From: an uncultured Eubacteriales bacterium
GTDB lineage: Bacteria; Actinomycetota; Coriobacteriia; Anaerosomatales; JAAXUF01
Reading direction: 5' to 3'
Assembly: GCA_964388455.1 (NCBI GenBank)
Contig: CAYMAN010000005.1
Location: 2,920-66,919, forward strand
DNA length: 64,000 nt
The translations under genes were made by a program, and so were the position numbers. Shown one piece after another: positions 3,718 to 34,484 of the stretch (the stretch's first letter is position 1; each line of letters begins with the position of its first letter). The notes beneath the pieces are model-generated. The model worked only from the letters and a program-made list of their open reading frames with translations, searched no databases and had not been told where the DNA came from.

Positions 3718-5220
3718 CTAGGACCTGGACCCAGAACCGTCCTTGGGCGCCCCGAACCGGTTGATGAACTCGAGGTGATCCACGGTCGGGACCTCGAGCA
3801 CCCGTCCGATACGGCGCAGTTCGCCACTCTCGGTGCAGAAGAGTCGCGCGCGTTGCGCGATCGACATCACGATCGCGTCCGACTCCGTGAGCTCATAGCG
3901 ATCCTTGAGCGCCTGAGAGTCCGACGGCGAATGCTCGACGGGATTCAGCAGCTCCTCCATGTTCGCGCGACCCTGAATCAGCCCGCGCAGCAGCTCGTAA
4001 TCCTCGAGCGTGACCTCCCAGCGCACTCGACGCTGAATCATGCGCTCAGCTTCCTCAGCGGCGATCATGGCGGTCACGAAGTCAGCGGTGGCGAAGAAGC
4101 GACGCTTGCGGAGGAGCAGGAGCAGCGGCAGAAGGAGGAGGGGCGTCAGGCAAAGAGTCCAGCCGGTGGCCGTGGTCGGAACAGGAATCGGGTTGGCAAC
4201 CGAGGGCCATCCCCATACCTGGATGCGTCCGTTGTTACTGTCGGTTATGAAGATCTTGCGCTTGGAGTCGATGGATACATCGTTGGGGTAGTTGAACTGG
4301 CCTTCCAAGACACCCTTTGCACCAAAGGTCAGGACCTTCTCGGAGGTCGAGGAGTCCCAGATGGTGGCGTCGTGGGCGAGTGTGTCAACGACTACCAGGC
4401 GTAGCGGCTCCTCAGGGTCAAGTTTGGGAAGGAAGGCCAACCCGCGCGGAAGACCCTGGGTAACCTGCATGCGCTTGAACTCGCCTCGGCGGCTAAAGAC
4501 CTGAATGCGACGATTGTTGGAGTCGGCGACCCATACCTCGTCGCCGCGGACCTTGACGGAGTTGGGGAACTGGAAGACGGACTCACCCTGGGTCGGATCA
4601 TTGATCATGCCAAACGTCCCGACGCTGCGGTTGAACGCTCCGTCGGGACGGAAGATCAGCAGGCGGTGCCCGTTGAGAATCTCAGTGACGTAGAGCGTCC
4701 CATCAGGTGCGAACGCCAGAGCGAGCGGTGCCCACTGAACACCCTTGGGAACCTTGATCGTGGGCAGCTGATCCTTGGGAAGCTTGGGATCGAAGACCCG
4801 AAGGAACTTCCCCTCAGAGCTGAAGATGGCGATGCTTCGCGTGCGGCGATCGCTCACCCACAGTTCACCGGTCTTGGGATGCTTTGCGACGTAGAGCGGC
4901 ACGACCAGCTTGCCCTTACCCCACGAGGCGATCTTGGTGCCGGTCTTGGTGAACACGTCGAGCACGCCGCGACGGGAATCCGTCACGTATACCCGATTCC
5001 CGCTCACGAGAACGCCCAACGGACGGACCAGTCTGTCCTGACCCTCGCCACTGAAGGAATACAGGTACTGCGGCATGGGAAGCAGATCCGCCTCGTTGAC
5101 CTGAATGTCGATACCCAACGACCTGGTCGAGCGATAGTTCACGAACGCAGCTGCGAGCAACGCAAGGAGTATGACGAGTACGACGATCGCGATGATTTGG
5201 CGCATCCGCTTACGGGACAT
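3718..5220 (-). CDS. Bitopic membrane protein: TM, NHL-repeat beta-propeller, TM, ~135-aa PIN-like C-terminal domain (paralog A)
   Basis: N-terminal TM IIAIVVLVILLALLAAAF. NHL-type blades include VYVTDSRRGVLDVF, LWVSDRRTRSIAIF, VWVADSNNRRIQVF and IFITDSNNGRIQVW. A second TM (TLCLTPLLLLPLLLLL) is followed by RKRR. SD AGGAGGAA precedes the start. Confidence 0.8.
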   Translation of the reverse strand: MSRKRMRQIIAIVVLVILLALLAAAFVNYRSTRSLGIDIQVNEADLLPMPQYLYSFSGEGQDRLVRPLGVLVSGNRVYVTDSRRGVLDVFTKTGTKIASWGKGKLVVPLYVAKHPKTGELWVSDRRTRSIAIFSSEGKFLRVFDPKLPKDQLPTIKVPKGVQWAPLALAFAPDGTLYVTEILNGHRLLIFRPDGAFNRSVGTFGMINDPTQGESVFQFPNSVKVRGDEVWVADSNNRRIQVFSRRGEFKRMQVTQGLPRGLAFLPKLDPEEPLRLVVVDTLAHDATIWDSSTSEKVLTFGAKGVLEGQFNYPNDVSIDSKRKIFITDSNNGRIQVWGWPSVANPIPVPTTATGWTLCLTPLLLLPLLLLLRKRRFFATADFVTAMIAAEEAERMIQRRVRWEVTLEDYELLRGLIQGRANMEELLNPVEHSPSDSQALKDRYELTESDAIVMSIAQRARLFCTESGELRRIGRVLEVPTVDHLEFINRFGAPKDGSGSRS

Positions 5221-5276: not shown

Positions 5277-6317
5277 TTACTTGGCTCCGAGCTCAGCCAA
5301 CATGTTCTTCAGAGCGGTGTCGTCGGGCAGGGTAGCCAGCGCGGCCTTGACCACTTTCTGGGCACCGGCTGTGTCGCCGTCGGCCTTGAGCACTTCTGCG
5401 TGGAAGATGACGGCGTCTACGTTCTCGGGGTCCAGTGCCGTCGCCAACAGCGCTGCATCGATGGCGTCCTTGAGTTGACCCGCCTTCAGCCGGGCACGAC
5501 CGTCTTCAACCGCCTGCTTCGAGGTACCAAGCTTCTTCAGCGCATCGACGGGCTGGTCCTGCTCGGGTGCCAGGTCGGCAGCCTTGCGGAGATGAATAGC
5601 GGCGTTGATCTTGTCGCCTTGATCGAGCAGGATCATCCCGTAGAGGTAGTGCGCCTCAGGATAGTTGGGATCGAACGCGAGCGCGGCGTTGAGTTGCTTG
5701 ACCGCCGCCACGTCCTCCCCCATACCGCGCAGAGACTGCGCGAGGAGGTAGTAGGTGTCCGAGGCGTCCTTGCGGATTCGCAGCGCTCCCTTGAAGTAGC
5801 CCGCGGCATCCTCGTAGCGTCGCTGACTCAGCGCGATCTCGCCCAGATGGAAGAGAGCCTGCTCGCGGCGCTCGTTCATCGCCTCGAACTGAGTCGCCTG
5901 CGTAAGCTCGACGACTTTGGTGAAGTACTTCTCGGCGGGGCCGTACTCCTTGTTTTCCATTGCGATGATGCCCAGGTCGAGGTAGGCGCCCGTGTGGTTC
6001 TTGTCGAGCTTCACTGCGATCTGGAACTGCTCGGCTGCCGGCTTGAGCTGGCCGGCTGCGGCGAGTGCCTCCCCGAATCGGACGCGTGCGGCCGCACTAT
6101 TGGGGGACTTTCTGACCACCGCCTCGATATCCTTGATCGCGCGCTGCGCGGGAGTTGCGGTGAGCTCTGCCTGCCTCCCCTGCCACACGGAATAGCCGAG
6201 AAGGGCGCCGAGGCCTATGACCGCGGACACGAGAACGATGATGACGATGCGAAGGATGCCGTCGGCGCCTTCAGGCGAGCGCTTCAATCGGCGTGTTGCA
6301 GGCGCGTTCTCACTCAT
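5277..6317 (-). CDS. Membrane-anchored TPR-repeat protein (paralog A)
   Basis: Single N-terminal TM (ILRIVIIVLVSAVIGLGALLGY) followed by tandem TPR-like helix pairs, e.g. AVKLDKNHTGAYLDLG and ALAFDPNYPEAHYLYG. ATG 6317 (SD TAAGGA) is preferred over the track TTG 6323. Confidence 0.75.
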   Translation of the reverse strand: MSENAPATRRLKRSPEGADGILRIVIIVLVSAVIGLGALLGYSVWQGRQAELTATPAQRAIKDIEAVVRKSPNSAAARVRFGEALAAAGQLKPAAEQFQIAVKLDKNHTGAYLDLGIIAMENKEYGPAEKYFTKVVELTQATQFEAMNERREQALFHLGEIALSQRRYEDAAGYFKGALRIRKDASDTYYLLAQSLRGMGEDVAAVKQLNAALAFDPNYPEAHYLYGMILLDQGDKINAAIHLRKAADLAPEQDQPVDALKKLGTSKQAVEDGRARLKAGQLKDAIDAALLATALDPENVDAVIFHAEVLKADGDTAGAQKVVKAALATLPDDTALKNMLAELGAK

Positions 6318-6455
6318 GCACAAGTCCTTACCCGTGACGTCGTACGCGCTGGAGCCTGCCGGGGCTCACATGGGGCGCGAAGACTGCTGACTGACAATAC
6401 CTGCGGTGCCAAAGTGCCGTCAACACGACGACGCCTGGCGACACGCAGGACTCAC

Positions 6456-7301
6456 CTACGGAAGCTGCTTTGCGACGGCGATCAGGGCGTTCTTGAGACC
6501 CGCCTGCTTACCGGGATCGGCCGCCATCTCCACCTGGATAAGCACAGCACCTTGCGTGAATGCAAGAATCGCATACCGAGTGTTGTCGGTGCCAAAATAC
6601 GCAGAATGTCCATTGACTTTCACCGTGCTCGCACCCATGGAGTAGGGGCGCTTCGAGTACGCCTCGAGAGCGGCTGCGGCGTAGCCCTTGTCCCGGAACT
6701 GCTCAACGTCGATGACCAGAGCGCGCACCTTGGACCCTGATGCCGGGACGTACTGACGTGTGAGGTTAAAGGCGCCCGCCACTGGCTTGGCCGCCTTGAA
6801 CCCTGTCAAGGTTCCGGGAGCCCACTTCAGCAGCGTTTTGACCGGACCGGTAATCTCGTCGTCACCGGGCTTCGCGGTACCCGTGGTGGGATTGGAGCCA
6901 CCGGATCCGGGGTTCGCAGTGTCGGGTGTCGGCTTCTTGCCGGACTTGATGACGGCCAGCTGCTTTGCCGCCTGACGGAATGCAGGGTCGTCGGCGACGA
7001 TCTGGGCGAGCTTCAACTGCGCTGCGGCCATATCACCCTTGGTGATGTCGGCCTGTGCTGCCGCGTAGAGAGCGTCAAGCTTCTTATGCCGATCACAGGT
7101 GATAGTGACGGTCTCGGCCTTGCGCAGGGTAGCCTCCTCGGCGGGGACGCTCACCGTTTTGATGGTGTTTGAGACGACCTCACCGTAAGTGCAGAGGGTG
7201 CGTGTCCCGGACTGGACCTCAACCTTCTTCTGACAGCCCCCTGTCGCGACCAATGAAGCCGTCAGTGCCGCAAGCGCGAGTATGGATCCAAGACGTCTCA
7301 T
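6456..7301 (-). CDS. Lipoprotein of unknown function
   Basis: MRRLGSILALAALTASLVATGGC is a signal peptide with a lipobox. The ATG 7301 overlaps the upstream stop as ATGA. The track start at 7493 adds an Arg-rich extension that overlaps the upstream gene, so I rejected it. Confidence 0.7.
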   Translation of the reverse strand: MRRLGSILALAALTASLVATGGCQKKVEVQSGTRTLCTYGEVVSNTIKTVSVPAEEATLRKAETVTITCDRHKKLDALYAAAQADITKGDMAAAQLKLAQIVADDPAFRQAAKQLAVIKSGKKPTPDTANPGSGGSNPTTGTAKPGDDEITGPVKTLLKWAPGTLTGFKAAKPVAGAFNLTRQYVPASGSKVRALVIDVEQFRDKGYAAAALEAYSKRPYSMGASTVKVNGHSAYFGTDNTRYAILAFTQGAVLIQVEMAADPGKQAGLKNALIAVAKQLP

Positions 7302-8764
7302 ACGTTCTCCTTCGGTGGCGAAGCGACAGACGCACTGCCCGCGCTGAGACGGCGCACGAGTGTCACGATCAGCAACACGCATGCCCCTGCCGAAAGCGCG
7401 AGAGCGGTGTATCGGACGAGGTGAGGAGCGACTTCCAAGGACAAGCGAGCATATTCCGTGCCGTAGGCCTGCTGGATCTCCGCAGGAATCCATCTCGTCC
7501 AGGTATGAAGCGGAGTGGATACAACGAGGGGATAGGCGGCAGCAGCCAACAGCGCCGAAACGGCAGCGAAGAGCGCCTCACGGACCCCGACCATTCGCCG
7601 GGACTCGATGGCTGTTGCCAGTGCGAGGAGGGACACGCTCAGCAGGAGCCATCCGACTGCTGCCTCGGCTCCGCTGAACGTCCAGTTCGCCGCGAATGCG
7701 GCGCCCGCCTCAGTGGTACCTACGACCGATGCGTTGAACGCGGGCAGAAAGAGCGCGGCGGTCGAAACCGCTGTCGCAATGCCCGCAAGCGCGATCGCCG
7801 CAATCGATTCCGGGGCCCGAGGAGCGGCGGATAAGACTTCCGCAGCCTCGGTGCAATGCGCGGTGTGCAAGACCAGTAGGCCGAGGACCACCAGCACGGA
7901 TCCACCAGCGGCCCCGGTCCACACGATCGGCGCAGGACCGAAGGCGCCCGTGAGTCGCTCGACTACTGTCAGAGCGGTGAGCGCCATCGGTGTCACGACC
8001 ATCCACGCAGTGGCTCTGACGACACCCCGTGAGCCTGCGAACCCGGCGAGTCCGGTAGCCATCGTCGACAACGCCACACCCGCGAGCATCAGCTGCGGCC
8101 ATGTGCGGCTGTAAGCGGCCGCTGCGGGCATGGTGTCGGGCAATGCGACCACAACAGACAGAGTGGTAGCGGCAGCGACACCGATCCAGAGCGAGGAGCG
8201 AAGTCCCATCAGTCCTGCGCTTCGACGAGCACCGATCAGTCCTAGGGCGAACACCCCACCAGCGCCAAAAATGATCGCCTCCTGTAGGGGGAACTTCATG
8301 AACGGCGAGAATGAACTGGGTCGCTCCCAATTGCCGAGAAGCGCTGCGGTGCCGAGGATCGTCATCAGGACAGCGGCGGACTGGACGTACGTCGGCCGCT
8401 CACGGCGAAAGAACGACGCCGCGAGCGCGGAGGCGAGCAACGCACCCGCTGTGGTGAAGAACAGGGTCTCGGTTCCTGACGGCGCGTCAGTGGCCCGCTG
8501 TGACAGCACGATCAAGGGGGCCAGGTACCACGCGAGAACACCCGCCGCACCAGCAAGAACGGTCTCGCGACGCCCGGCCGCTTTCACGCGAGCCGGTACA
8601 GCGCTGCCCACGAAGCCCGAGATGAACGCGATGGCCACCACAAGCGATGCGGCCATGATGACCGAATCGGGAACCTCGCCGATCAGGAGCGTGGACACGA
8701 CGAACCACGCGGCCGAACCAGCAACGATCATGGCGACACAGAGCGACTGATTGGACAATCTCAC
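7298..8764 (-). CDS. Polytopic integral membrane protein (~14 hydrophobic helices), unknown function
   Basis: Hydrophobic Ala/Leu/Gly/Val-rich segments run throughout the protein. GTG start with SD GGAGGAG. I recognise no cofactor or transporter motif. Confidence 0.6.
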   Translation of the reverse strand: MRLSNQSLCVAMIVAGSAAWFVVSTLLIGEVPDSVIMAASLVVAIAFISGFVGSAVPARVKAAGRRETVLAGAAGVLAWYLAPLIVLSQRATDAPSGTETLFFTTAGALLASALAASFFRRERPTYVQSAAVLMTILGTAALLGNWERPSSFSPFMKFPLQEAIIFGAGGVFALGLIGARRSAGLMGLRSSLWIGVAAATTLSVVVALPDTMPAAAAYSRTWPQLMLAGVALSTMATGLAGFAGSRGVVRATAWMVVTPMALTALTVVERLTGAFGPAPIVWTGAAGGSVLVVLGLLVLHTAHCTEAAEVLSAAPRAPESIAAIALAGIATAVSTAALFLPAFNASVVGTTEAGAAFAANWTFSGAEAAVGWLLLSVSLLALATAIESRRMVGVREALFAAVSALLAAAAYPLVVSTPLHTWTRWIPAEIQQAYGTEYARLSLEVAPHLVRYTALALSAGACVLLIVTLVRRLSAGSASVASPPKENV

Positions 8765-11023: not shown

Positions 11024-14000
11024 CTACATCTTCTTGATACGGCAGAGGCAGATCTTGTACTCAGGAATCAAAGTGTTTGCATCCCAGGCATCGATGGTGA
11101 GGTCGTTTGCACGCGAGCCGGTTGAGAGGCCCTTCTCACCCCAGTGCCATGGAATCGCGACTACACCGACGCCTACACGCTGGTTGGTGCTCTGTCCAAC
11201 GCCCACCTTGGCGCGCCAGCCCGCTCCGTAAGGAAGAAGCTTCTGGTCTGCAAGGCCCTCGGTGCGCTTCGTGATGATCTGGACCAAGTCACCATCCTGG
11301 ATGCCGTGGGCACGCGCATCGATGGAGTTGAGCTCGATCCACGGCTCGGGCTCGAGCTCATGGTTGTACGCGTTGTTTCGCGTGATCGGGCCACCCTGGA
11401 AATGCTCGACGCAACGAATCGTGGTGAGCATGAGCGGGTAGGTGTCCACGGTACCGATGGGCGACCGCGCGTCTGAAGTGGTGATCAGGTTCGCGGAGGT
11501 GCCGGTTGTGCCGTTCTTGCCCCACGTGAGCGCGAGCGTAGGCTCTGGGGTCTCGTACGGCTCGGTGTGGCCGGGGAAGCGGCCGGTGAGCACGTGCGGC
11601 GCGGTCGAGCCACCGATGCTGGGCAGATCCTTGAGGTTGTGGTGCTTGCGATAGTTGTTGTTCGCATAGTCCATGAGATCCGTGCTGAGCGTCGAGAAGA
11701 GTCTCGAGACGCGGTCCGGACCCTGGAACCCGTCCATCTGATCGCCAGGAACCTCAGCTGTGGCATCGACCGCTGCATTGTTGTTGTACAGAACGCGACG
11801 GTTGACCAGCCAAGAGTAGCCCCACTTGTGGAAGCCATAGGACTTGTAGGGATCTTCCTGTGAGCGACTCTTCGAGCGATTGGCAACTGTCCATGCAGTG
11901 TAGTCGGCACCGAGACGCGACTTGTTGAGAGTAGAGCTGTACGCCTCGTGGTAGATCCAGATCGTTCCGCCACCGGCGTTTGAGACGACGGTGCACATCT
12001 GGCGATACAACTTCTCCGCGACGTACTCGGCGCCCGTCATCGCGCCCGTCTTGATGCCACCCTCGTGGGTGAATCCGGACTCGGTCGCGTCCTTGAAATC
12101 ATCGACGGTAGCCGTTGCGTTCGGCGTCCAGCCGTACTGGCGACCGAACAGTGAGTCATACACCGATACGAAGGTGCCAGGTGTCGCACCGTCCGTGCTT
12201 GCTGCGAACGCTGCGCCCTTAGTCCATCCGAGACCGCCGGATGCCTTGGCCGTGGTCCACTTGTTCTCGATGTGCGAGAACACGCTCTTCTCGTCAAGCT
12301 TCTTGGCGAGACGAAGCAGCAGCTCGAGATCGGTCTTGCTGTTGCCGCTGGGGAGTTTGGCCTGATAGCGCCACTGCAGTACGCGACCGGAGTTGGTTGC
12401 GCTACCGGCCTGCTCGACGTGCGCGGCAGCCGGAATCAGGTACGTTACTGCACCATCCTTACGCGGAATAGCGGCCGTCTCAGTCTCGAAGACATCCTGT
12501 ACGACCAACAGATCGAGGTTCTTGAGGCCGTCGCGCACCACACCCTGGTTGGGCTCGGTCACGGCCGGGTTCTGGCCAAGAATGAACGCAGCCTTCGTGC
12601 CGCCTGCGACCATCTTGCGGAACATGGAGATGTGATCATCGCCGTTACCCTTTGGCCAGAGGTCGTACACAGCGTTGACCTTCGTGCGCCTGTCGGCGAT
12701 GGCTGCCGTGGCGGCGTCATCAACGTAGTCGTCGGCACCAGCGGCGTAGTTCGGAGCGAACCACCGCATGGTCATGTTGTAGAAGCCCTTGGACTGCAGG
12801 TTCAGGGGTCCCGTGCCTACCAAGCCCCATGTGCTACGAGTGAACGCGTCATCGTACGGGTTGGTGCCCATGTTCATGCGGTTGCCCCACAGGCCGTCCA
12901 TGTACTTACCGAACGCATTGACGTCATTCTTAGTCGAGTCCGAGTGACCAGCGCTCATCACCGTCGGGTTGCCCGAGTACGCAGGGATGTTGCCGAACAG
13001 CAGACCCATATCCGTGGAGCCCTGAACGTTGTGGATTCCACGAAGGGCGTTGATTCCGCCGCCCGCACGACCCGCGTTACCCAGAATGGTCTGGAGGTTG
13101 GCGAAGCCCTTGACGTTCTGCGAGCCACACGTGTGCTGGGTGATTCCCATTGCGTAGAGAATCGTGGTCGCACGATAGCCGGATGCGTAGGGCGTCTTGA
13201 CAAGACCCGTCAGCGGATCCGCGTCGCCTGCGCCGGTGTAGCTAGCCATGCGGCTGTGCTTGATCATTTCTTCGGCAACCGCAACAAGCTCGGCCGGGGT
13301 ACACCCGCAGATATCGGCAACAGTGGCCTCGTCATACGGTGCGACCTGGGCTTTGAGCTTCTGGAAAACACTGTCCGCATCGGTGATGTCGTTCGCGGCA
13401 ACAGGAAGCGCCGTGAACTGGAATGCAGCGTCCCACCAGCCCATACCGAAGTACAGGTTTGCCAGGCTATCTGAATACCAGAGTGCCCAGCTGGTACCGA
13501 CCTGGGCGACCACTGGACGCGCGGTGCCTGCGCTGGCGGTCACGCCCGGCAAACCCTTGATGTAACCGGTCAATCCGGCAGCCACAACAGGCCGCGTGAA
13601 GGTCAGGCCATCGGCGGAAGTTGCCGTGCTGATCTTCTGGATCTGATCCGTCAAGCTGTACCCAACGTACAGGAGCTGGTATGCAGCGCCGTTCTTGACA
13701 ACCATCGGGTGCATGACGCGATAGCTATCCCAGCCAGTCGCCGCAGGTGAAAGAGCCGGTACGGGACCGCCGACGACAGCCTCGAACGAGGCGTTGAAGG
13801 TGGTTGCGTCCCAGGTACCGGGCGCGTCCGTCGTGAAGCCCTGATACAGCTTGTACTCAGCGGCTGGATTCCCACGACCCTGGAAGTAGAGGCGATATGT
13901 CGCTCCATCCTTCAGGACCATAGGACGGTCGTACTTGTAGATGGTCATGCCCGCACTGTCGGTGACAGGTGTCGTCACCGGATCGAGGATGACGGCTTCG

Positions 14001-15526
14001 GCGCCCCATGTCAGGCCATCAGCAGAGCTGCGAATGGTGAGTTTACGATCCGCATCGTTGTTGACCATGTAGTACACGCCGGACTCAAGCCAGACGAACG
14101 GTGCATCGGCGCCGTCGGAGACGTTGGTATCGACACCCGTCGTCCACGTGTTGCCGTCCTTGGAGGTCGCGAACTGGATGTTCGTCTCCGCGCCTACAGC
14201 CGAGACGTACCACATCTTGTACTTCTTGGCGGCGTCAGTCTCCGCTGCGTCAAACACAACTGTCGGTGTGTTAGCGGCATATCCGGTTGCAGCAGCCTTG
14301 TTGTAGCGCTGATAGTCGCTGCCCACCGAGTTGATCTTCAGGCGTGCATCGGTGTACTTGGAGCGATCCGCGGCCGTAGCTACGCCGCCCCTAGCACCGT
14401 CGGGGATGAACGTCTGCGTCTGCTTCTGGTTAAGGAAGGCGTCGAAGTGAGTCTTGTACTTCTCCGTTGCAGCTGCGCCGTCCGCGATGTTGTTGATGAT
14501 GTAACGAATCAGGCCGTTCTGGAACGCGATGTCTGTTCCGGGACGGATACGCACATACATGTCCGCCTGCGTCGCGGTGCGCGTCTTGCGCGGATCGATG
14601 ACGATCATCTTCGCCGCGGGCTTTGCACTTATGTCGCCGTTAGGCAGAACCTGGTTGGCGGTCTTGGCGCGGTTGATGTGCGCCATGCACGCCGGATGGT
14701 TCTCTGCCGGATTAGCTCCCCACGCGATGACAAGCGTCGAGTTCGCGATATCTGTCCAGCTGTTGGTCATTGCTCCACGTGCGAATGCGGCGGCCAGACC
14801 GGCCACCGTTGACGAGTGTCATATTCGCGCCTGATGCTCGACGTTGCTGGTACCGAAGTTCGCGATGAGTTTGCGGTACAGATAGTTGCCTTCGCTGTTC
14901 ATGTGCGAACTACCGAAGAACGCAACGCCCTTACTGTTGTAGCCGTTCGCGGCCGACGGTGCTGAAACACCGGCGCCACCAACGTTGTCACGTGCGGCCT
15001 TGAGGCCGTCTGCGATCTCATCCATCGCCTGGTCTAGCGGCATCGCCGTCCACGCGGTGTTAACGCCTGATGCAGTTCCTGTGGACTTGTACGCGACGCC
15101 GTTAGGAGCAGCCGGGTCGGCAAGGAAGGCATTGCTGCCTGCAGGGTGGTTGAGACTGCCGCCGAGCTCAGGCGAGCCAGCTTCCCACGCACCGATACGA
15201 CGAGAGTTGTTCACGAGCTGAAGAGAGCCCGCACCCTTGGAGCACAGACCGCCGGTATTGAAGACGGACTCGAAATCGCCATAGATGTCGACGACCTTGC
15301 CAGATGATTTCTCAACGACTACTCGCTGCCCGCAACTAGCGGAACAGTAAGGACAGGTGGTTGTGGTGATCGTGTAGGCGGCCATTCCCTCGTACGCCGC
15401 TGCCTTTGCAGGGTCGTATGCGAAGTTGAGACCGCAACCAACCACCGCTGTTGCAGCAGCGGATGACTTCAGAAAGTCTCTACGTGAGAGTCCTGAGGCC
15501 CCCTGCCCGGTGTCTTTAGTTGCCAT
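11024..15526 (-). CDS. Tat-exported selenocysteine-containing molybdo/tungstopterin oxidoreductase, formate dehydrogenase (FdnG)-like, 1500 aa with internal beta-propeller-like insertion
   Basis: Track ORFs 14819..15526 and 11024..14806 are in the same frame and separated only by TGA 14819-14821. The joined reading is ...NVEHQARI-U-HSSTVAGLAAAFARGAMTNSW, which matches the FdnG/FdhF Sec context. Tat signal SRRDFLKSSAAATAVVG. N-terminal FeS motif CPYCSASCG...C. C-terminal pterin-binding region ...LTTIRCVEHFQGG... Confidence 0.85.
14789..14807 (-). promoter_or_regulatory. SECIS-like hairpin 11 nt 3' of the UGA codon
   Basis: GGUGGCC-GGUCU-GGCCGCC forms a 7-bp stem with one G-U pair. The GGUCU loop resembles the E. 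coli fdhF SECIS apical loop. Confidence 0.65.
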
Positions 15527-15705: not shown

Positions 15706-15792
15706 CTAGAACCCATATTGGACAGCCCTCTTCCCTTACCCGGGGAAACACGAGCATGGGCGAGCCGTGGTGACCGGGGCTCGCCGTACTCG

Positions 15793-15893
15793 CAGTCTCC
15801 TTTCCAAGTGGGGAGGCGCCACCGTTTCCAGTGACACCCCGGCCCGACAACCATGGCGCGGATGCGCTGTAGGTCCGAAGGGCTCGGAGACTG
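15793..15893 (-). ncRNA. Moco/Tuco-riboswitch-like element in the FDH-operon leader
   Basis: An 8-bp closing stem CAGUCUCC...GGAGACUG encloses CUCCGAGCC, an internal GGAAACGG loop, GCGCCUCCCC and UUGGAAAGG. These are the conserved blocks I recall from the Moco RNA motif. A paralogous element lies at 34340-34442. Confidence 0.6.
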
Positions 15894-15948
15894 TCTTATT
15901 CGGTTGAATCAAGCACGATCTACGCGTTCACGACCCTGTGAGGTCGAG

Positions 15949-16046: not shown

Positions 16047-17543
16047 CTAGCGTTCATTCTGCCGATCGTTTGCGCCGAAATATCGTGCAATGAACTGCTC
16101 CGCATCAAATGTGCCAATCTCCGCTAAACGCGCAAGGCGCCGGAGATCCAAATCCTCGGTGCACAGACCCCGAGCACGATCAGCAAGTGCAAGGAGAATC
16201 GCCTCGCGCTCACCGATGTCGAGCTTCTCGCGCATCGCACGCACATCGGACTCCGAGTACTCCTCGGCCTGGATAAGCGTGCCAAGATCGACGTCGCCAA
16301 CGATGCGGCCCGCGTATAGCGCGTGGTCCATCTCAGGACAGAGCAGACGCAGCTTGCGCTTGGAGGCCACTTCGGCGATCACATCGCGCTGAATGAGCAC
16401 CTCGACGAACTCCGGTGAGACGACTAGGCGGACCTTTCTGAGCATCAACGGAATCAGGAGCAGAAGGAGCGGCAGGAGACACAGCGCCCAACCCCACGGC
16501 GTGCTGGGGGTGACAACTCTCGGGATGGGAGCAACCGGCCAGCCCCATACCTGGACCTGATCGTTCTCGCGGTCGGTGACGTAAATGCGGCCGTTCTTAT
16601 CGAGCGCCACATCTGCGGGATAGTTGAACTGACTGGGACCAAATCCCTTGGAACCGAACTGAACCAGCTGCTTGCCATCGAGATCGTAGATGTCCACGAC
16701 ATGTGCGAGAGCGTCGACCGCGAACAGATGCTTGGAATCCACAGCCAGACCGCGAGGAATACCCGATGAGTCGATGATGCGGATCAATTCGCCGGTTGGC
16801 TTGAACACCTGAATGCGACGGTTGTTGGAATCCGAGACGTAGACAGCGCCGTTCTTCGCCACAGCGATACCACTTGGAAAGAAGAACTCGCTCGGCGAAT
16901 CGATCACCGAGTTGGCCTGAACTGTCTTGCCGAACGTGACCGTTCGGCTGCCCTCGGTGGAGAAGAAGATGACTCTGTGTCGGTCCGTTGCGCCGACATC
17001 AGTGACTCTCGGCGCACCTGATGTGTCAAAGGAGATTGCCAGTGGAGCCCAACTGAACTTGGGTTCACCCTCCGGCGTGAACGTCCTCAGGTACTTACCC
17101 TCGAGGTCGTAGACGTAGATGGTCCTGAAGCGGCGCTCGGTTACCCACACCTCGGAGCCCTTGATGGCGACGTTCACTGGCGAGCGAAGTCGACCCTTGC
17201 CAGTGGTGCCGAACGAGAAGAGATACCTGCCGCGCGGAGCGAACACGCTCATCCGCCGATTGCCCGCGTCAACGACGTACACGCGGCCATCCGCGCCGAT
17301 ATCGACTCCGGCAGGGCGTCTGATCTGACCCTTGCCTTCGTCTCCGGTGATGGAGAACAGATACTGCGGCGCTGTCAACGCCGCTTGTGGCTCTCCCAAC
17401 TTCACAGACGGCAGGCTCTGGTTCCTCACAAAGTAGAACGTCGCATATGAAAGCAACGCGAGCAGCAAGAGGAGCAGAGCAAGCAGGATGACACGTTTGC
17501 GCTTCTGACGACGAGTTAGAGGCTGACGCGTGCTACTTGCCAT
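16047..17543 (-). CDS. Bitopic membrane protein: TM, NHL-repeat beta-propeller, TM, PIN-like C-terminal domain (paralog B)
   Basis: Same architecture as 3718..5220. Blades include VYVVDAGNRRMSVF, VWVTERRFRTIYVY, VYVSDSNNRRIQVF and IYVTDRENDQVQVW. TM2 is ALCLLPLLLLLIPLML, followed by RK. The start overlaps the upstream TPR gene by 11 nt. Confidence 0.8.
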   Translation of the reverse strand: MASSTRQPLTRRQKRKRVILLALLLLLLALLSYATFYFVRNQSLPSVKLGEPQAALTAPQYLFSITGDEGKGQIRRPAGVDIGADGRVYVVDAGNRRMSVFAPRGRYLFSFGTTGKGRLRSPVNVAIKGSEVWVTERRFRTIYVYDLEGKYLRTFTPEGEPKFSWAPLAISFDTSGAPRVTDVGATDRHRVIFFSTEGSRTVTFGKTVQANSVIDSPSEFFFPSGIAVAKNGAVYVSDSNNRRIQVFKPTGELIRIIDSSGIPRGLAVDSKHLFAVDALAHVVDIYDLDGKQLVQFGSKGFGPSQFNYPADVALDKNGRIYVTDRENDQVQVWGWPVAPIPRVVTPSTPWGWALCLLPLLLLLIPLMLRKVRLVVSPEFVEVLIQRDVIAEVASKRKLRLLCPEMDHALYAGRIVGDVDLGTLIQAEEYSESDVRAMREKLDIGEREAILLALADRARGLCTEDLDLRRLARLAEIGTFDAEQFIARYFGANDRQNER

Positions 17544-18580: not shown

Positions 18581-20221
18581 CTAGATGTTCAGGTCGGTAT
18601 GGCAGCGCAAGCACAACGACGCTCCGGGATACGGAGCGATGATCTGATTCTGATAGTCGACCGCACCGTGGCAGCCATAGCACAAGCGAACGTCGTGCCC
18701 TGCGTTCGGCAGACTCCCGGCGGTCCCATCGTGCGCTGGCGACGACGCAGCGGTTGAGAACCCGATATGGCAGTCATCACAAGTGTACGGCTTCCCATCG
18801 TACGGTTTGCCACCTCGGGTCGTTCCGGTTTTGAAGTGCACGGCGTGCTCGGCGAAGCCCTTGTTCTTGATGGAAGTGGGCGGCTTCTTCGTCATCTCTT
18901 CATGGCACGGTACGCAGTTCTTCGAGATGAGCTCCGCCTTGGCGACCTTCTGGTGGTGGCAGTTCTGACACGTGGCCCGATTCGTGTGGCACACATTGCA
19001 GTCATCGGTCGTCACGCCGGGAGCCGGCCGGTGATTCTCGATCCAGCCGGTGGGGTGCGGCATGACGGTCTTGTGGCATCGCTGGCACGACTTCGCGTCA
19101 TGACACGAACCACACGCGCCCTTGCCGCCAAGGTACAGCGGTCCGTGCTTGGTCTTCCAGTCGGCCTTGAGATGGTCCTTCGGTACGACCGACTTGGCGG
19201 GCGCATTTGGCGATTCACTCTTGCCTGTGTGGCACTTCACACAGAAGGCGGACTTGTGACACATGGCGCAGTACGCAGGGTCAGCGTTGGCCGTCTTCTG
19301 GTGTTTGCCCCGCACAAACGACTTGGTGTGATTCTTGGGAACCAGGTCGAAGCTCTTGGGGTGGCACTTGAGACACGCGTCCCCGGCGACGAGCCCCTGT
19401 GTCGAATGCTCGAGCCCGTGGCACCGGTAGCAGGACAGCATCTCGGGCTTGGTCGCGCCATCTGCCGTGTGTCCGAACGTCGGGTGGCACACGCTGCATT
19501 TGTAGTTGCGCTCGACGTGCGCCGAGTGGGCGAAGATGAGCGGCCCGGGCATGAAAGCGTCAAGATTGGGATGGCAGTAAGAGCACTGCGACATCGTCGT
19601 CGAACCCGTCGGATAGATCTTGATCGATGGGTCTTTCGCCTTCTCGGTGATTATTGAAGCGTATGTGGGAGGCATGGGCGGGATATCGAGATTCTTGTCC
19701 TTGTGGCAGACGTCGCAGTCTTTGACGGACTCATGGCACATCATGCACTGGTTGACACCGGAATCGTTGGCGACGTCGGCGTGGGGCTTGTTGGGCCAGT
19801 CTTTGACGTGACTCTTGGGGCGCAGCGTCTTTGACTTCGTGTGGCACTTGTTGCACTCGGCGGTTGCGAGTTCGCCCTGAGGTCCATGCGAAACGCCGTG
19901 GCACGCGAAGCACACTTCCATCGGGACCGTCTCCGTGACGCCGTCCCGGTGGGGCATGCGGGCATGGCAACCGTCGCAAGCGACCATGAGATGGTTTCCG
20001 TGGCTGAAGATCAATCCCGGCTGGTTGACCGAGCCCAAGTCGAGGTGACACGGCACGCACTGTGAGCGGTCGACGGAAGCTGCGGTGTCGATGACCGGAT
20101 CGGGCGAACCTGGTGTCGCGGCCAATCCGAAACGCACAGAAGCAAGCAGGAAGGCGGCCACGAGAACAGTCGCGGCCACCCCCCAAACCCAGTTATGTCG
20201 ATTGTGTCGTGCGTCAATCAC
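18581..20221 (-). CDS. Membrane-anchored multiheme c-type cytochrome, 20 CxxCH motifs
   Basis: N-terminal TM VWGVAATVLVAAFLLASV. I count 20 CxxCH motifs, from CVPCH and CDGCH through CYGCH and CLRCH. GTG start with SD TAGGGAG. Confidence 0.85.
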   Translation of the reverse strand: MIDARHNRHNWVWGVAATVLVAAFLLASVRFGLAATPGSPDPVIDTAASVDRSQCVPCHLDLGSVNQPGLIFSHGNHLMVACDGCHARMPHRDGVTETVPMEVCFACHGVSHGPQGELATAECNKCHTKSKTLRPKSHVKDWPNKPHADVANDSGVNQCMMCHESVKDCDVCHKDKNLDIPPMPPTYASIITEKAKDPSIKIYPTGSTTMSQCSYCHPNLDAFMPGPLIFAHSAHVERNYKCSVCHPTFGHTADGATKPEMLSCYRCHGLEHSTQGLVAGDACLKCHPKSFDLVPKNHTKSFVRGKHQKTANADPAYCAMCHKSAFCVKCHTGKSESPNAPAKSVVPKDHLKADWKTKHGPLYLGGKGACGSCHDAKSCQRCHKTVMPHPTGWIENHRPAPGVTTDDCNVCHTNRATCQNCHHQKVAKAELISKNCVPCHEEMTKKPPTSIKNKGFAEHAVHFKTGTTRGGKPYDGKPYTCDDCHIGFSTAASSPAHDGTAGSLPNAGHDVRLCYGCHGAVDYQNQIIAPYPGASLCLRCHTDLNI

Positions 20222-20244
20222 GCGGGTATCAGACTCCCTAGCGA

Positions 20245-21585
20245 CTAGTCGCCGCCCAGCCCACGAATGCGGGCGATCAGTTGAAGCAGTGCGTTCTGTT
20301 CCTGGGCCTCGCCCTTACGATGGATCAGTTCGCCCGCGGCGGCACCGAACTCCTCGCTCGATCCCTTGTGGCAACCTTCCTGGCCGCACGTCGTGCCGAT
20401 GTTCTTGGTCGAGACGCTGGATGCGGCATTCGCACTAGGAAGAACCTCGTGCGCCTCATGGCACTGCCAACATGCGGGTGAATCTGCGGCGCCGTTCTTG
20501 TATGCACGCCCATGATAGTAGTCATTGTACGTCGCGTAATCGTCGCCGTGCTGCTTACAGCGGGCGCAGGTGCGATAAGCCGATCCATGCATACGCAGCT
20601 TGCCGGCCTCTGTCGCGGTACTGTAGATGAAGTGACCGCCGTGGCAGGATGCGCAGGTGGCCGACTCGTAGTCACCTTCGAGCAGCTTCTCGGAGTGAAC
20701 CGACTTGCCGTACTCGGCGACCGGGTCCTTGAGCTTCGGCTCCTCGAGATCCTGATGGCACGTGCCACACGCGATGCCGGCGTTGATGTTCCATAGCTTG
20801 GTCACACCTGGCTTGTCGTCGTAACGATAGTCCGGGTGACACTGCTGGCATGTGTTTTCGCGGTGCGCAGAGTCATCGACTCCGGCCACCTCGAACGATT
20901 TGGCTGCGCCGGCCGACTGCTTCAAGAGCGTCGAACTGCCGTGACACGACTGACAGCCGTTGTCACTGTCGAAGTCCCACCCGGTCGACGGGGTCCAGTC
21001 GATGTTCTCGCGGAGGTGACAGTCCACGCAGTCGGCAGCCTTATGACACATCATGCACTTGGTGTTGAGCGCATCGTTCGAAGGCTTGACGTGCGGTTTC
21101 TGTGCCCAATCCGCGGTGTGGAAGGCGGGGCGAAGACGCCACTTAGGCGTCACGTGACAGGCATCGCAATTGTCCTTGGCGATGATACCCATCGAGCCGT
21201 GGCGCAGTCCGTGGCAGTCGAAACAGCCCTTCATGGTCGGGCGCTCAGTGCCGGTCTTACGGTGAGGGAATCGCGGGTGACAACCGCTGCACTGCACGAT
21301 GATGTGGTTGCCGTGCGAGAACTTGATCGACGATGAGTAATTCTTGGAAAGTGCGATGTTGCCGTGACACAACGTGGTGCACGCTGCACCATCGACCTGC
21401 GAGCCAGCGAGCTGGTCGAAGAGCTGTGTGATAGAAGCGGAGCCCGTCGTGAGATCGATCTCGTCGACCGGCACGGCGTCCGCAGCGAAGACGAACGACG
21501 TTGATGCGATAACGGTACAGAACGCTGCCGTCGCGAGTGCGAAGGCGAGCAGCCTGCCGGGGCGTGCTCTGAACCTGAAGGTCAT
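20245..21585 (-). CDS. Secreted multiheme c-type cytochrome: 10 CxxCH plus CX3CH, CxxCK and CX4CH sites
   Basis: Signal peptide MTFRFRARPGRLLAFALATAAFCTVIASTSFVFA, from ATG 21585 with SD GGAGAAGGGG; the track start 21816 is rejected. Variant motifs are CTTLCH, CARCK and CGQEGCH. The N-terminal half is homologous to the 20-heme protein and the C-terminal part to the 7-heme protein. Confidence 0.8.
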   Translation of the reverse strand: MTFRFRARPGRLLAFALATAAFCTVIASTSFVFAADAVPVDEIDLTTGSASITQLFDQLAGSQVDGAACTTLCHGNIALSKNYSSSIKFSHGNHIIVQCSGCHPRFPHRKTGTERPTMKGCFDCHGLRHGSMGIIAKDNCDACHVTPKWRLRPAFHTADWAQKPHVKPSNDALNTKCMMCHKAADCVDCHLRENIDWTPSTGWDFDSDNGCQSCHGSSTLLKQSAGAAKSFEVAGVDDSAHRENTCQQCHPDYRYDDKPGVTKLWNINAGIACGTCHQDLEEPKLKDPVAEYGKSVHSEKLLEGDYESATCASCHGGHFIYSTATEAGKLRMHGSAYRTCARCKQHGDDYATYNDYYHGRAYKNGAADSPACWQCHEAHEVLPSANAASSVSTKNIGTTCGQEGCHKGSSEEFGAAAGELIHRKGEAQEQNALLQLIARIRGLGGD

Positions 21586-21644
21586 GCTGTCGTACCCCTT
21601 CTCCCCGTTGGGCCCTCTTGGGAGCGCCCAACGCACTGATGGTC

Positions 21645-22646
21645 CTATCCTGCGAACAGTGATCTGACTGAATCGATCATCGATCGAACCGCAGTCCGTA
21701 CCGTGCTCACAGCCGCGTACAGAGGGTTCTCGTCGTACACCTGCTGCGCGCTGTGCACGAGCACGCCGAAGTCGAGGAACGTATCGTCCATCTCGCCTGC
21801 GTGACAGGTGCCACACGTCTCAGGAAGGTTGTTGCGGTTGACCGCAGACTTGCGGTCGTCGGCAGCAAGCACTTGATGCGTCTCGTGACACTGCCAGCAG
21901 GCAGGAGCGTCTGATGCGCCCACCTGATAGGCGCGGCCATGGTAGTAGTCCATGTACTCGACCGTGTACTTCTCGTGGCACGACCCGCACATGGCGACCG
22001 CTGAGGCGCGAACGGCCTCGTTGCCCGCCGTGTCTTCTTTGCTGGGAATACCGTGTCCGCCGTGGCAGTCGCCACACAGAGGACGCGGCTTGCCCGGTGC
22101 CGAGGAATCGGCTGCGCCGACGGTGGACGAGCTGTCTCCGGGACGGCCTGCCGGCGAGTGCGCCCCACTGGTGTAGAGCGTGAACGCGTCTTTGTGGCAG
22201 TTCTTGCAGGACAGCTTGGCCACCTCGCGCCACTCTTCACCGTTCTTTACGATGGTGTCATGGGGCGTCTTGTACGCGAAGTCGACGTGGCAGCTGGTGC
22301 ACGGCACGTTCTTGTGCGCCGAGCCCTGAATTATCTCCGTGTCGACGTACAGGGAGATGATCTTGCCGGCCTGGATCCGCATGAGATTCTGGTCACCGTG
22401 GCACACGCCGCAACCCGACTTGCCGGCGGTCGGCAACGTCCAGTCGAGGTCGTACGTGGGTTTCAGCGGAGCCTTCTTGGTGACAGTCGCGGTCTTGGTC
22501 GCCGACTTAGACGAGGCAGTGACCGACGCGGGGACAGCTGGCATCGCCGTTGAAGTGGTGGCGGGGGCCGCCAAAGAGACCCCCGGAAGCCCAATGGCTA
22601 CCGCAAGCGCACCAGCAACAATGGTCGAGCGCAGAATCATCCGCAA
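21645..22646 (-). CDS. Secreted heptaheme c-type cytochrome
   Basis: Signal MRMILRSTIVAGALAVAIGLPGVSLA. Seven CxxCH motifs: CGVCH, CTSCH, CKNCH, CGDCH, CGSCH, CWQCH, CGTCH. The start is TTG 22646 or ATG 22640. Confidence 0.85.
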   Translation of the reverse strand: MRMILRSTIVAGALAVAIGLPGVSLAAPATTSTAMPAVPASVTASSKSATKTATVTKKAPLKPTYDLDWTLPTAGKSGCGVCHGDQNLMRIQAGKIISLYVDTEIIQGSAHKNVPCTSCHVDFAYKTPHDTIVKNGEEWREVAKLSCKNCHKDAFTLYTSGAHSPAGRPGDSSSTVGAADSSAPGKPRPLCGDCHGGHGIPSKEDTAGNEAVRASAVAMCGSCHEKYTVEYMDYYHGRAYQVGASDAPACWQCHETHQVLAADDRKSAVNRNNLPETCGTCHAGEMDDTFLDFGVLVHSAQQVYDENPLYAAVSTVRTAVRSMIDSVRSLFAG

Positions 22647-22658
22647 CTTCGTTGCTCC

Positions 22659-23522
22659 CTAGACCTGGTCTGCCACGGGTACCGCCGGAGCGTGCTCCAT
22701 ACCGGGAGCCTTGGCATCGTGCGCACGGTCATCGCCATGTGCGTCACCGTGATCGCCATGCTCGGCGTGGGGCCTGTCCAGAAAACCCAGACCGAAGAAG
22801 TCCAGGAACGCCGGGAGGTCCTCGGTGACTGAGAGGTACACGTGAATCGTGGTGAGAACAATGAACAGCCAGTTGATGAGGTAGTGGATGGTTCTGACCC
22901 ACCACACACCGCTGGCGCCGATGAGTCCGGCAACAAGCTGCTGGAGGCTGACATCGACGATCGGCAACATGAGTCGCCAGAGCATCAGGCCGGTGATGGC
23001 CTGTGCGATCAGCAGCGGCACGAACAGCGTGTACGTGCCCTTCTGCATGATGTTGTACTTGCCCAGGTGCGGCTTGGACGGCTTCACGAAGATGTAATAC
23101 AGAATGACCTTCGGGGCCGTGGTGAGGTCGCGCTTGCTGATGGCGAACTCGCGATAGTCACGACGGCGCGAGCCGAACGCGTACCACAGGCGCACGATCA
23201 GGTTGACGATCACGATGATCATCGCGATGTAGTGCACCCACTGCATGAACGCACGGCCACCGTTGAAGAACGGGAACCGAATGTACATGCCCGACACGCC
23301 CAGCGCGATCATGGCAGCGACGTGCTGGAAGTGCAGAAGCTTGGGAAGTGCAGGAATAGGTCCGCCTTCATGCGCAGGCCACTCCCAACCGACAAACCTT
23401 CGTTTAGCGCGACCAGTCAGGATGTTGCCGAGGAAGTGGCCTGAGAGCGCCACAACAATCACCACATAGAGCGTGGTGAACACGACATCGATCCAGACGT
23501 TAAGCTGCGTCAGTCCGATCAA
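22659..23522 (-). CDS. Integral-membrane b-type cytochrome (Ni/Fe-hydrogenase / FdnI-type cytochrome b family-like) with His/Asp-rich C-terminal tail
   Basis: Four to five TM helices carry conserved His residues (LLHFQHVAAMIAL, WVHYIAMIIV, VRTIHYLINWLFIVLTTIHVYL). Tail: RPHAEHGDHGDAHGDDRAHD. TTG start with SD GGGAGTAGGGGG. Confidence 0.65.
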   Translation of the reverse strand: MIGLTQLNVWIDVVFTTLYVVIVVALSGHFLGNILTGRAKRRFVGWEWPAHEGGPIPALPKLLHFQHVAAMIALGVSGMYIRFPFFNGGRAFMQWVHYIAMIIVIVNLIVRLWYAFGSRRRDYREFAISKRDLTTAPKVILYYIFVKPSKPHLGKYNIMQKGTYTLFVPLLIAQAITGLMLWRLMLPIVDVSLQQLVAGLIGASGVWWVRTIHYLINWLFIVLTTIHVYLSVTEDLPAFLDFFGLGFLDRPHAEHGDHGDAHGDDRAHDAKAPGMEHAPAVPVADQV

Positions 23523-33442: not shown

Positions 33443-34336
33443 CTACTCGGCGTTCGGGACGAACAGCTGCTGTCCGAACTCCGCCACGCCGTACTCGCCG
33501 ATGACCTTCTGGCCATCAGCCGACAGGATCCAGTCGTTGAACGCCTGTGCGCCGACCTGGTTCTTGGCATCGGTCACCACGATGACGCCGTACTGGTTGA
33601 GCAGTCCCTTGTCCTTCTCGTACAGCACGACCAGGTCGGGATTGGCCTTCTGCGACGACAGGTAGGTGGCACGGTCGACGAGCGTGTAGGCGGCCTTGTC
33701 GTTGGCGACCTTGAGCGTCTCGCCCATGCCCTGACCGGTGGAGAGGTACCACGCGTCCGCATCAGGCGTCGGCGTGGGTGTCACACCGGCGTTCGCCCAG
33801 AGCTTCAGTTCCTTCTTGTGGGTTCCGGAATCGTCGCCACGAGAAACGTATAGTCCCTTGCCGGACTTGCCGGACTTCTGGATTGCGAGCATCGCAGCGG
33901 TGGTATCAGCCGAACCCTTGATCGCAGCAGGATCGGACGCGGGACCCACCAGAACGAAATCGTTGTACATGACGCTCTTGCGCTCGACTCCGAAACCACC
34001 GGCCACGAACTTCTCTTCGTCCGCCTTGGCGTGCACGAGCAGCACGTCTGCGTCCTTGGTCTCGCCCAACTTGAGCGCTTCACCGGTACCGACGGCGATG
34101 ACCTTGACCTTGTACTCAGGATTGGCCTTCTCGAACGCAGGAATCAGCACGTCAAACAGTCCTGAATCCTGTGTCGAGGTTGTTGAGGCCAAGACGACAT
34201 CGCTTGTCGTCGGGGTCTCGGCGGCTATAGGCGCTTCGGCTTTCTGCCCGCAACCCACAAGCGCCAATACCAGTACGACGGCGAGCGAGATGCCCGCCAG
34301 GCGCCTCTTGCGAGGCGCGGCGTTCGGGTGGTGCAT
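33443..34336 (-). CDS. tupA: Tungstate-binding lipoprotein TupA
   Basis: Lipobox LALVGC. TupA-type motifs LASTTSTQDSGLFDVLIPAFEK, VGTGEALKLGETKDADVLLVHA and SRGDDSGTHKKE. Confidence 0.8.
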   Translation of the reverse strand: MHHPNAAPRKRRLAGISLAVVLVLALVGCGQKAEAPIAAETPTTSDVVLASTTSTQDSGLFDVLIPAFEKANPEYKVKVIAVGTGEALKLGETKDADVLLVHAKADEEKFVAGGFGVERKSVMYNDFVLVGPASDPAAIKGSADTTAAMLAIQKSGKSGKGLYVSRGDDSGTHKKELKLWANAGVTPTPTPDADAWYLSTGQGMGETLKVANDKAAYTLVDRATYLSSQKANPDLVVLYEKDKGLLNQYGVIVVTDAKNQVGAQAFNDWILSADGQKVIGEYGVAEFGQQLFVPNAE

Positions 34337-34339
34337 ATG

Positions 34340-34442
34340 AATCCCCTTTCCACCGGGAGGCAGGGCCGTTTCCGTGCCCTACCCTATCGGTCCGGCATCC
34401 TTGGCCCATCATGGGCGGTAGGCGTACCGGACTCGGAGACTT
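34340..34442 (-). ncRNA. Moco/Tuco-riboswitch-like element abutting the tupA start codon
   Basis: AAGUCUCCGAGUCCGG...CCUACC...GGUAGG...CACGGAAACGG...CUGCCUCCCGGUGGAAAGGGGAUUCAUAUG. The 3' block closely resembles the E. coli moaA leader as I recall it (GCCUCCC...UGGAAAGG...AUG). The SD lies inside the conserved GGAAAGG. Confidence 0.7.
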
Positions 34443-34484
34443 TGGCCGCGCGGGTGCGCGACGGATTCCAGCATAGCGCACGAC

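Follow-up and report, generated by a model that had tools for sequence, protein, structure and literature searches.

A PIN-like domain predicted at the cytoplasmic end of membrane-anchored NHL-propeller proteins in respiratory operons of Coriobacteriia-like Actinobacteria

PIN-like domains carry three almost invariant acidic residues, one after strand S1, one at the N-terminus of the crossover helix H4 and one after strand S4 (Matelska et al. 2017, PMC5499597), together with a fourth that usually lies downstream of strand S2 (PMC5499597). In the 2017 classification of these domains, COG4956/YacL is the sole membrane PIN group retrieved by membrane terms, and NHL or propeller does not occur in it (PMC5499597). 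PDC-S70, a candidate single-gene defence system of the PADLOC library, is described as encoding a PIN nuclease domain (PMC12988326). NHL and TPR genes beside multiheme cytochromes have been ascribed to assembly or protein-protein interaction, and these two reports do not mention a cytoplasmic domain on the NHL accessory proteins (PMC10376724; bioRxiv 10.1101/2022.05.06.490989). Here we analysed a 64,000-nucleotide stretch of contig CAYMAN010000005.1 (positions 2,920 to 66,919; hereafter the window) from an uncultured Eubacteriales bacterium placed in the Anaerosomatales (Actinomycetota; Coriobacteriia), which encodes two paralogous NHL-repeat proteins. Their C-terminal 130 residues, located behind a second transmembrane helix, probably constitute an unannotated family of the PIN-like superfamily with PIN_4 and PDC-S70 as its nearest relatives, acting as a membrane-held endoribonuclease under the NHL propeller.

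Paralog B (winB) is a protein of 498 residues encoded at 16047..17543 (-), and paralog A (winA) has 500 residues and is encoded at 3718..5220 (-). Over their whole length the two share 38% identity across 469 residues (E 1e-84), and their C-terminal domains are 33% identical. Both have the same layout, namely a first transmembrane helix (TM1), the NHL propeller, a second transmembrane helix (TM2) and the 130-residue C-terminal domain. When both were scanned against Pfam and NCBIfam, the NHL repeats alone were recognised (Pfam NHL, E 9e-25 for paralog B and 2.7e-24 for the other copy) and the last 130 residues had no model; an exact-sequence look-up of paralog B returned no record. A preliminary description of the window had placed a conserved domain behind TM2 at 16050-16439, and these limits are exact for residues 369-498 of paralog B: base 16439 is the first of codon R369, where the RKVR run begins, and base 16050 is the end of the last sense codon. 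The motifs quoted there (RK.R, (D/E)FV, SxSD, E..AI, A.RAR, CTE and LRR) are all present. The copy in paralog A had been put at about 3721-4128, and its location is right except for the upper end; the domain begins at R371, base 4110, so that the earlier span took in six residues of TM2. In the following, domain position 1 is the first residue after TM2 (R369 in paralog B, R371 in paralog A).

The structure of the domain was predicted with AlphaFold2. A model from the single sequence was unusable, with a predicted local distance difference test score (pLDDT) of 43.7. With an alignment of 43 family sequences, called A2 and also used for the column statistics below, the pLDDT rose to 95.3 and the predicted template-modelling score (pTM) was 0.87. 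The model consists of strand S1 (3-7), helices at 9-17 and 21-26, strand S2 (30-35), a short helix, a hairpin and another short helix, followed by strand S3 (56-59), helices at 63-73 and 77-87, strand S4 (91-93), a helix at 97-105, strand S5 (110-111) and a last helix at 113-124. The five main strands alternate with helices, as in the three-layer Rossmannoid alpha/beta/alpha PIN fold with its five-stranded parallel sheet. In a Foldseek search of the PDB with this model, PIN domains occupied ranks 1-8 and 10-17, and about 27 of the top 50 chains were PIN domains as judged from the chain descriptions. Among them were PAE0151, the minimal RNase P HARP, Nmd4, VapC21, the PF protein 1y82, SMG6/EST1A, AF0591, SSO1118, Nob1, the YacL-type 3ix7 and small-subunit processome subunits, interpreted here as PIN proteins of Utp24/Fcf1 type. 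For the named PIN chains the probabilities were ~0.9-1.0 and the template-modelling scores (TM-scores) ~0.5-0.68. The best match among viral models (BFVD) was a Medusavirus PIN-domain protein (E 5.5e-4). The fold search, which the preliminary description had named as a test of its assignment, therefore points to the PIN fold, and the predicted PIN-superfamily fold of the C-terminal domain is well supported. A CheY-like receiver, with an Asp after S1, an Asp after S3 and a Thr after S4, was also considered and rejected, as there was no receiver domain among the Foldseek matches.

Sequence profiles gave a similar assignment. The family consensus matched Pfam PIN_4 with 22.3 bits (cut-off 21.9, E 1.7e-4), aligning residues 20-112 to profile positions 47-131 of 132, and had a weak match to PIN_5. 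When the 43 members were scanned one by one against Pfam, seven sub-threshold matches to the PIN clan were seen and elsewhere scattered singletons only. In the PADLOC library, which has no curated cut-off, paralog B matched four PDC-S70 models (best E 3.3e-6) and the B-type member P0010 matched five. These matches were limited to paralog B, P0010 and the consensus; none was found for paralog A, P0006 or P0022, although P0022 groups with paralog B by both sequence and context. It may be only part of the B-type lineage that is linked to the archaeal-rich PDC-S70 PINs. NCBIfam gave weak matches to PRK04358 and PRK12496, both labelled just 'hypothetical protein' in the library; presumably they are archaeal PIN-type families.

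The family is a small one. A k-mer (word)-indexed protein search found only 1-2 relatives, and an exhaustive search of 1.84 billion representative proteins was made with a profile of both paralogs and the word-search relative. The domain profile matched 75 clusters (formed at 50% identity), of which 53 reached E<=1e-10, and by these sequence statistics the family match is far beyond chance. All full-length matches are proteins of 482-629 residues with the domain at or near the C-terminus, behind the NHL propeller and TM2, and the shorter matches are contig-end fragments. The lineage that carries the family is Coriobacteriia-like Actinobacteria. In the source records the members are named only 'YncE'-like, 'YvrE'-like or 'hypothetical protein [Actinomycetota bacterium]'; no name gives a label for the domain, and the C-terminal domain is therefore unannotated. 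The preliminary description had also called for conservation among orthologs and for the acidic residues to be mapped; the 75 clusters show the former, and the latter was done in the 43-member alignment. A genome scan found a single partial ortholog (L001), 82% identical, in a Coriobacteriia metagenome-assembled genome; the ratio of non-synonymous to synonymous substitution rates (dN/dS) against it is 0.09 over 87 codons, and the sequences indicate strong purifying selection on the domain.

One divergent, Lys-rich branch (P0073/P0200, from loci L007 and L012 8001-9890) has two zf-TRM13_CCCH fingers C-terminal to the PIN domain, at residues ~505-629 (E 1.4e-6, over the cut-off), and its SxSD and T94 positions are altered in the alignment. 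TRM13 is a tRNA methyltransferase, and by analogy the fingers hint at nucleic-acid binding. As a separate observation, the 146-residue metagenome protein P0043 joins a seemingly unrelated N-terminal half, which to us resembles a methyltransferase fragment, to the C-terminal half of the PIN-like domain; it is probably an assembly or frameshift chimera and not a second architecture.

Membrane topology was estimated from hydropathy, with a simple scan applied to 24 full-length proteins of the family. Both hydrophobic segments were seen in 20 of them, TM1 alone in three and neither in one. Usually 4-7 Lys or Arg residues precede TM1, and 3-4 (once 7) lie within 15 residues after TM2, usually as an RRRR-type run. 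Because this distribution obeys the positive-inside rule, both termini are predicted to be cytoplasmic and the NHL domain to be outside the cell. By analogy, the order TM1-NHL-TM2-PIN is a classic two-helix sensor topology, with the putative nuclease domain in the usual place of the output. The central proposal of the preliminary description, a PIN-like cytoplasmic domain tethered to the NHL propeller through TM2, is supported by the AlphaFold2 model, the Foldseek PIN matches, the PDC-S70 and PIN_4 matches and this Lys/Arg topology.

We then examined which residues are conserved in A2. Position 10, three residues beyond strand 3-7, is D in 39/43 members and E in 3/43 (98% acidic). D/E65, likewise 98% acidic, caps the first of the two helices between S3 and S4, and an acid stands at 95 or 96 in 95% of members, D96 itself being 72% acidic and N in 16%. 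The three acidic sites (10, 65 and 95/96) are all occupied by an acid in 39/43 members, and 84% have an acid at 36-38, straight after S2 (30-35). Hydroxyl residues are also conserved at T/S8 (91%), S/T62 (88%) and T/S94 (93%; T94 91%), as are F11 (93%) and A80 (95%), and D112 is found in 60% with N in a further 33%. Paralog B has S8, E10, E36/D38, S62, D65, E79, T94-E95-D96 and D112 at the key positions, and paralog A has T8, D10, E37/D38, S62, D65, D79, T94-E95-S96, E98 and D112. The preliminary description had suspected that the domain might be degenerate, but with positions 10 and 65 acidic in 98% and an acid at 95/96 in 95% the alignment argues otherwise: the domain does not look degenerate at the family level and its acidic site is apparently intact. 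Activity may differ between individual paralogs, for example through S96 in paralog A.

The position of the H4 acid was approached with point mutants of the consensus, which were scored against Pfam (consensus residues 64, 93 and 95 are domain positions 65, 94 and 96). The PIN_4 score fell by 3.9 bits with D64A, by 3.3 with T93A and by 5.7 with D95A, and changed by about 1 bit or less with E78A/D, E53A and D37A. Changing E78 to D raised the PIN_5 score and brought PF01850 to 16.7 bits. Because PIN_4 rewards D65 and PF01850 and PIN_5 prefer position 79, which caps the second helix between S3 and S4, two registers are possible for the H4 acid, a VapC-type one with position 79 and a PIN_4-type one with D65 of the SxSD motif; conservation in the family favours D65. 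The segment EREAILLALA, which had been likened to the VapC 'D.xIAAxA' helix, fits the PF01850/PIN_5 preference, but position 79 is acidic in just 40% of members and the Asp rewarded by PIN_4 is D65. A further register, in which hhalign paired D96 with VapC D98, was rejected because it conflicts with the order of secondary structure in the AlphaFold2 model and with the three Pfam local alignments.

Sequence and model together lead us to lean, slightly, towards RNA cleavage at the membrane by a domain that binds a divalent metal. It would be a Mg2+/Mn2+-dependent endoribonuclease held at the inner membrane face, with an NHL propeller of the six-bladed type outside that is anchored by TM1 and joined to the PIN domain through TM2. 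The substrate would be RNA close to the membrane; the most plausible candidates are transcripts for the cytochrome machinery, which is exported co-translationally, and an alternative is tRNA or rRNA in a VapC-like manner. On the outer side, the propeller would interact with the TPR protein and the cytochromes. The parts of this scheme that we infer are metal binding, RNase activity, the substrate and the coupling between propeller and PIN domain. Several observations weigh against a PIN endoribonuclease. None of the 43 natural members reaches the Pfam gathering score of a PIN family, sequence and profile searches of the PDB found no PIN chains, and an hhalign comparison between A2 and 120 close VapC sequences of Shigella type, a narrow family, was not significant (probability 0.1). 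The Foldseek E-values of the PIN chains in the PDB are modest, from 6e-3 to 0.1. At the presumed site, the residue after D10 is the near-invariant Phe and not the usual Thr or Ser, 28% of members carry N, S, T or A in place of D96 (S in paralog A), and the poorly conserved position 79 equals the site-3 Asp of VapC.

The points concerning the site would suit a PIN fold that is non-catalytic, as in SMG5 or Nmd4, and serves as a cytoplasmic docking or dimerisation platform or as a small-ligand or metal sensor for the assembly of NHL, TPR and cytochrome proteins. The variable position 79, the replacements of D96 and the atypical Phe after the S1 Asp are consistent with it, and NHL/TPR proteins in multiheme cytochrome clusters are generally seen as assembly or interaction factors (PMC10376724; bioRxiv 10.1101/2022.05.06.490989). 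We nevertheless hold it to be rather unlikely, though worth keeping in mind, since three acidic and three Ser/Thr positions are near-invariant across lineages that are only ~25% identical, a pattern that marks a metal or active site that has been kept and not a pseudo-enzyme; in addition, D65, T94 and D96 are the residues that PIN_4 rewards, and one branch bears zinc fingers of a likely RNA-binding type. The modest E-values (1e-2 to 1e-1) could instead mean that the domain has another Rossmann-like fold, of flavodoxin, DsrE/H or methylglyoxal-synthase type, and matches PIN domains by chance. One member has a weak Pfam DsrH match, and further down the Foldseek list there are DsrE-like, methylglyoxal synthase, glycosyltransferase and pantothenate synthetase chains. 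Most of the non-PIN chains, however, have probabilities of ~0.2-0.75 (one 0.85) and TM-scores <0.5, below the ~0.9-1.0 of the named PINs; independent libraries converge on PIN (PDC-S70 at E 3e-6, and Pfam PIN_4, PIN_5 and PIN), and the acids stand after strands as they do in PIN domains, which makes a chance resemblance very improbable.

With a defence-candidate PIN as the nearest relative among curated sequences, one may ask whether a VapC-type toxin or an anti-phage, PDC-S70-like PIN was fused here by accident, with no functional tie to the propeller or the operon. At paralog B there is no adjacent small antitoxin gene; a TPR gene lies upstream and a 520-nucleotide gap with a riboswitch downstream. 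The toxin-antitoxin or defence-island reading was rejected on gene context, and an accidental fusion is hardly credible, as fusion and operon position are kept in 9/9 loci examined, down to ~25% identity, and the NHL-TM2-PIN architecture is found in all full-length members. If the membrane-held PIN endoribonuclease is accepted, one may go further and imagine a transmembrane sensor-RNase comparable to Ire1, in which the state of the propeller gates the cytoplasmic domain via TM2. The propeller would report assembly or occupancy of the surface multiheme cytochrome, hydrogenase or formate-dehydrogenase machinery, possibly with the TPR protein, and the PIN domain would cut the operon's own transcripts, or tRNA or rRNA, and so tune synthesis or growth to extracellular electron transfer. 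Feedback specific to a module would fit the finding that every respiratory module has an NHL/PIN ortholog of its own. On present evidence this extension is speculative and we consider it unlikely.

The genes around the two paralogs belong to a respiratory supercluster (Table 1). NHL/PIN-B is the last gene of its operon, because a molybdenum cofactor (Moco) riboswitch opens the next one, the molybdoenzyme operon. Downstream of NHL/PIN-B the order is the Moco riboswitch, the molybdopterin oxidoreductase, a 4Fe-4S protein, a multiheme cytochrome, two proteins with no Pfam match, a second TPR gene, NHL/PIN-A and the gene for a NiFe hydrogenase small subunit. The in-frame TGA of the molybdopterin oxidoreductase gene is read through, which implies a selenocysteine in the enzyme. 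Its Pfam Molybdopterin match stretches over residues 12-836 while using only 257 profile positions, indicating a very large insertion.

Table 1. Positions in the window of the two NHL/PIN-like proteins, their parts and the surrounding features
Feature	Position	Strand	Remarks
PIN-like cytoplasmic domain, paralog B	16050..16439	-	residues 369-498
TM2, paralog B	16440..16496	-	residues ~350-368, then RKVR; from hydropathy and K/R counts
Extracytoplasmic NHL-repeat beta-propeller, paralog B	16509..17378	-	residues ~56-345; Pfam NHL E 9e-25
TM1 (signal anchor), paralog B	17436..17492	-	7 K/R ahead of TM1
PIN-like cytoplasmic domain, paralog A	3721..4110	-	residues 371-500
TM1, NHL propeller and TM2, paralog A	4111..5220	-	
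TM-anchored TPR protein, CcmH/CycH-like TPR, 334 residues	17533..18537	-	11-nucleotide overlap with start of NHL/PIN-B gene
Three multiheme c-type cytochrome genes and cytochrome b (Ni_hydr_CYTB) gene	18581..23522	-	upstream, same operon as NHL/PIN-B
TM-anchored TPR protein, CcmH/CycH-like repeats	5277..6323	-	upstream of paralog A
Moco riboswitch	15781..15900	-	Rfam 64.8 bits; within the 520-nucleotide gap from NHL/PIN-B stop to molybdoenzyme start
Second Moco riboswitch	34328-34446	-	Rfam 54 bits
Tat-signal molybdopterin oxidoreductase, formate-dehydrogenase-like	11024-15526	-	in-frame TGA 14819-14821, 'HQARI-U-HSSTVAGL'
tRNA-Sec	50461-50553	-	same window as molybdopterin oxidoreductase

This arrangement is not peculiar to the window. 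Nine other loci were examined, from metagenomes and one 2.5-Mb genome record, with members down to ~25-35% identity, and a core of cytochrome b, 2-3 multiheme cytochromes, TPR and NHL/PIN recurs in all of them, with the same upstream gene order in L003, L006, L008, L009 and L012. The core is followed by the hydrogenase small and large subunit genes, or adjoins the block of molybdoenzyme, 4Fe-4S protein, cytochrome and the two proteins that lack a Pfam match. The neighbouring modules are Tat-exported hydrogenase or formate-dehydrogenase-like ones. Orthologous groups track the module: winA, P0007 and P0037 precede the hydrogenase, and winB and P0022 precede the molybdoenzyme. The Pfam-less pair itself, at 7298-8764 (-) and 6456-7493 (-) in the window, recurs in L008 (17989-20246), L009 (16712-18908), L010 (2663-4884) and L011 (5737-7997), with sizes of ~460-490 and ~270-345 residues and always behind the multiheme cytochrome of the hydrogenase/molybdoenzyme block; the precomputed annotations of these four loci give it no Pfam domain, save a faint TPR_19 in L008. 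Members of OPB41/Anaerosomatales in culture use H2 or formate for growth with Fe(III) and possess cytochrome and molybdoenzyme clusters of this kind (PMC9686372). Parvivirga hydrogeniphila and Anaerosoma tenue are cultured Anaerosomatales (PMC9686372). We also observed that G+C is ~0.60-0.62 in the first 24 kb, which hold the respiratory supercluster, and ~0.64-0.68 at 24000-64000; the cytochrome/hydrogenase/molybdoenzyme supercluster may be of distinct origin.

NHL and TPR genes beside the multiheme cytochromes of mineral- or electrode-respiring bacteria are usually dismissed as generic assembly factors. The PIN-like domain is the sole sizeable cytoplasmic domain identified in the respiratory module, and through it a respiratory machine outside the cytoplasm would be linked, in a concrete and testable way, to RNA metabolism. 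For the PIN superfamily it represents both a new family and a new architecture, and the 2017 classification has no entry for a two-helix sensor topology whose output is a nuclease (PMC5499597). Should the coupling of propeller and PIN domain prove true, it would add a new mode to transmembrane signalling in bacteria.

Among the described systems, PIN_4 (PF13638, with the PINs of SMG6/SMG5, Swt1 and PhoH2) is the best Pfam match of the family consensus. Both have the C-terminal 'T-x-D-x-x-L-R..A...gi.v' motif in common, and SMG6/EST1A PINs are among the Foldseek matches, but natural members stay sub-threshold, neither a PhoH ATPase nor a nonsense-mediated decay context is seen, and the domain here is tethered by TM2 beneath a propeller. 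Among curated models, PDC-S70 comes closest in sequence to paralog B, whose residues 51-108 align to positions 53-111 of a 162-position model; with the consensus the alignment is colinear and near full length (3-112 to 3-117). The PDC-S70 models have 125-162 positions and describe a single-gene system, whereas here the domain forms the C-terminal part of a fusion protein encoded in a respiratory operon; the A-type members, with paralog A among them, do not match PDC-S70. VapC (PF01850) resembles the domain in fold, with 5sv2, 3h87 and 5h4g among the Foldseek matches, in the Asp after S1 and in the motif, 'eAivLalA...lcTeD' in the family compared with 'D.lIaa.A...lvT.D' in VapC. It differs in that the family is never free-standing, has no VapB antitoxin gene and is acidic at the site-3 position in 40% only.

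YacL/COG4956 (PIN-TRAM) is likewise a membrane-anchored PIN, with 3ix7 among the Foldseek matches, but it is built of four N-terminal transmembrane helices, PIN and TRAM and has no extracytoplasmic domain, whereas the order here is TM1, NHL, TM2 and PIN; the Pfam/NCBIfam scan gave no TRAM match in paralogs A and B. The NHL accessory proteins of extracellular electron transfer clusters (Gmet_0556, Tenderia UetH/I and the Dethiobacter NHL/TPR proteins) are propellers beside multiheme cytochromes and TPR proteins, as here, and a PIN fusion to NHL proteins appears to be undescribed so far. In eukaryotes, Ire1 has a KEN RNase fold that is unrelated to PIN, and a kinase that has no counterpart here, and we claim no homology; as a functional analogy only, the two share, at a membrane on which proteins for secretion are synthesised, an outward sensor-type domain, a membrane span and a cytoplasmic output of RNase type.

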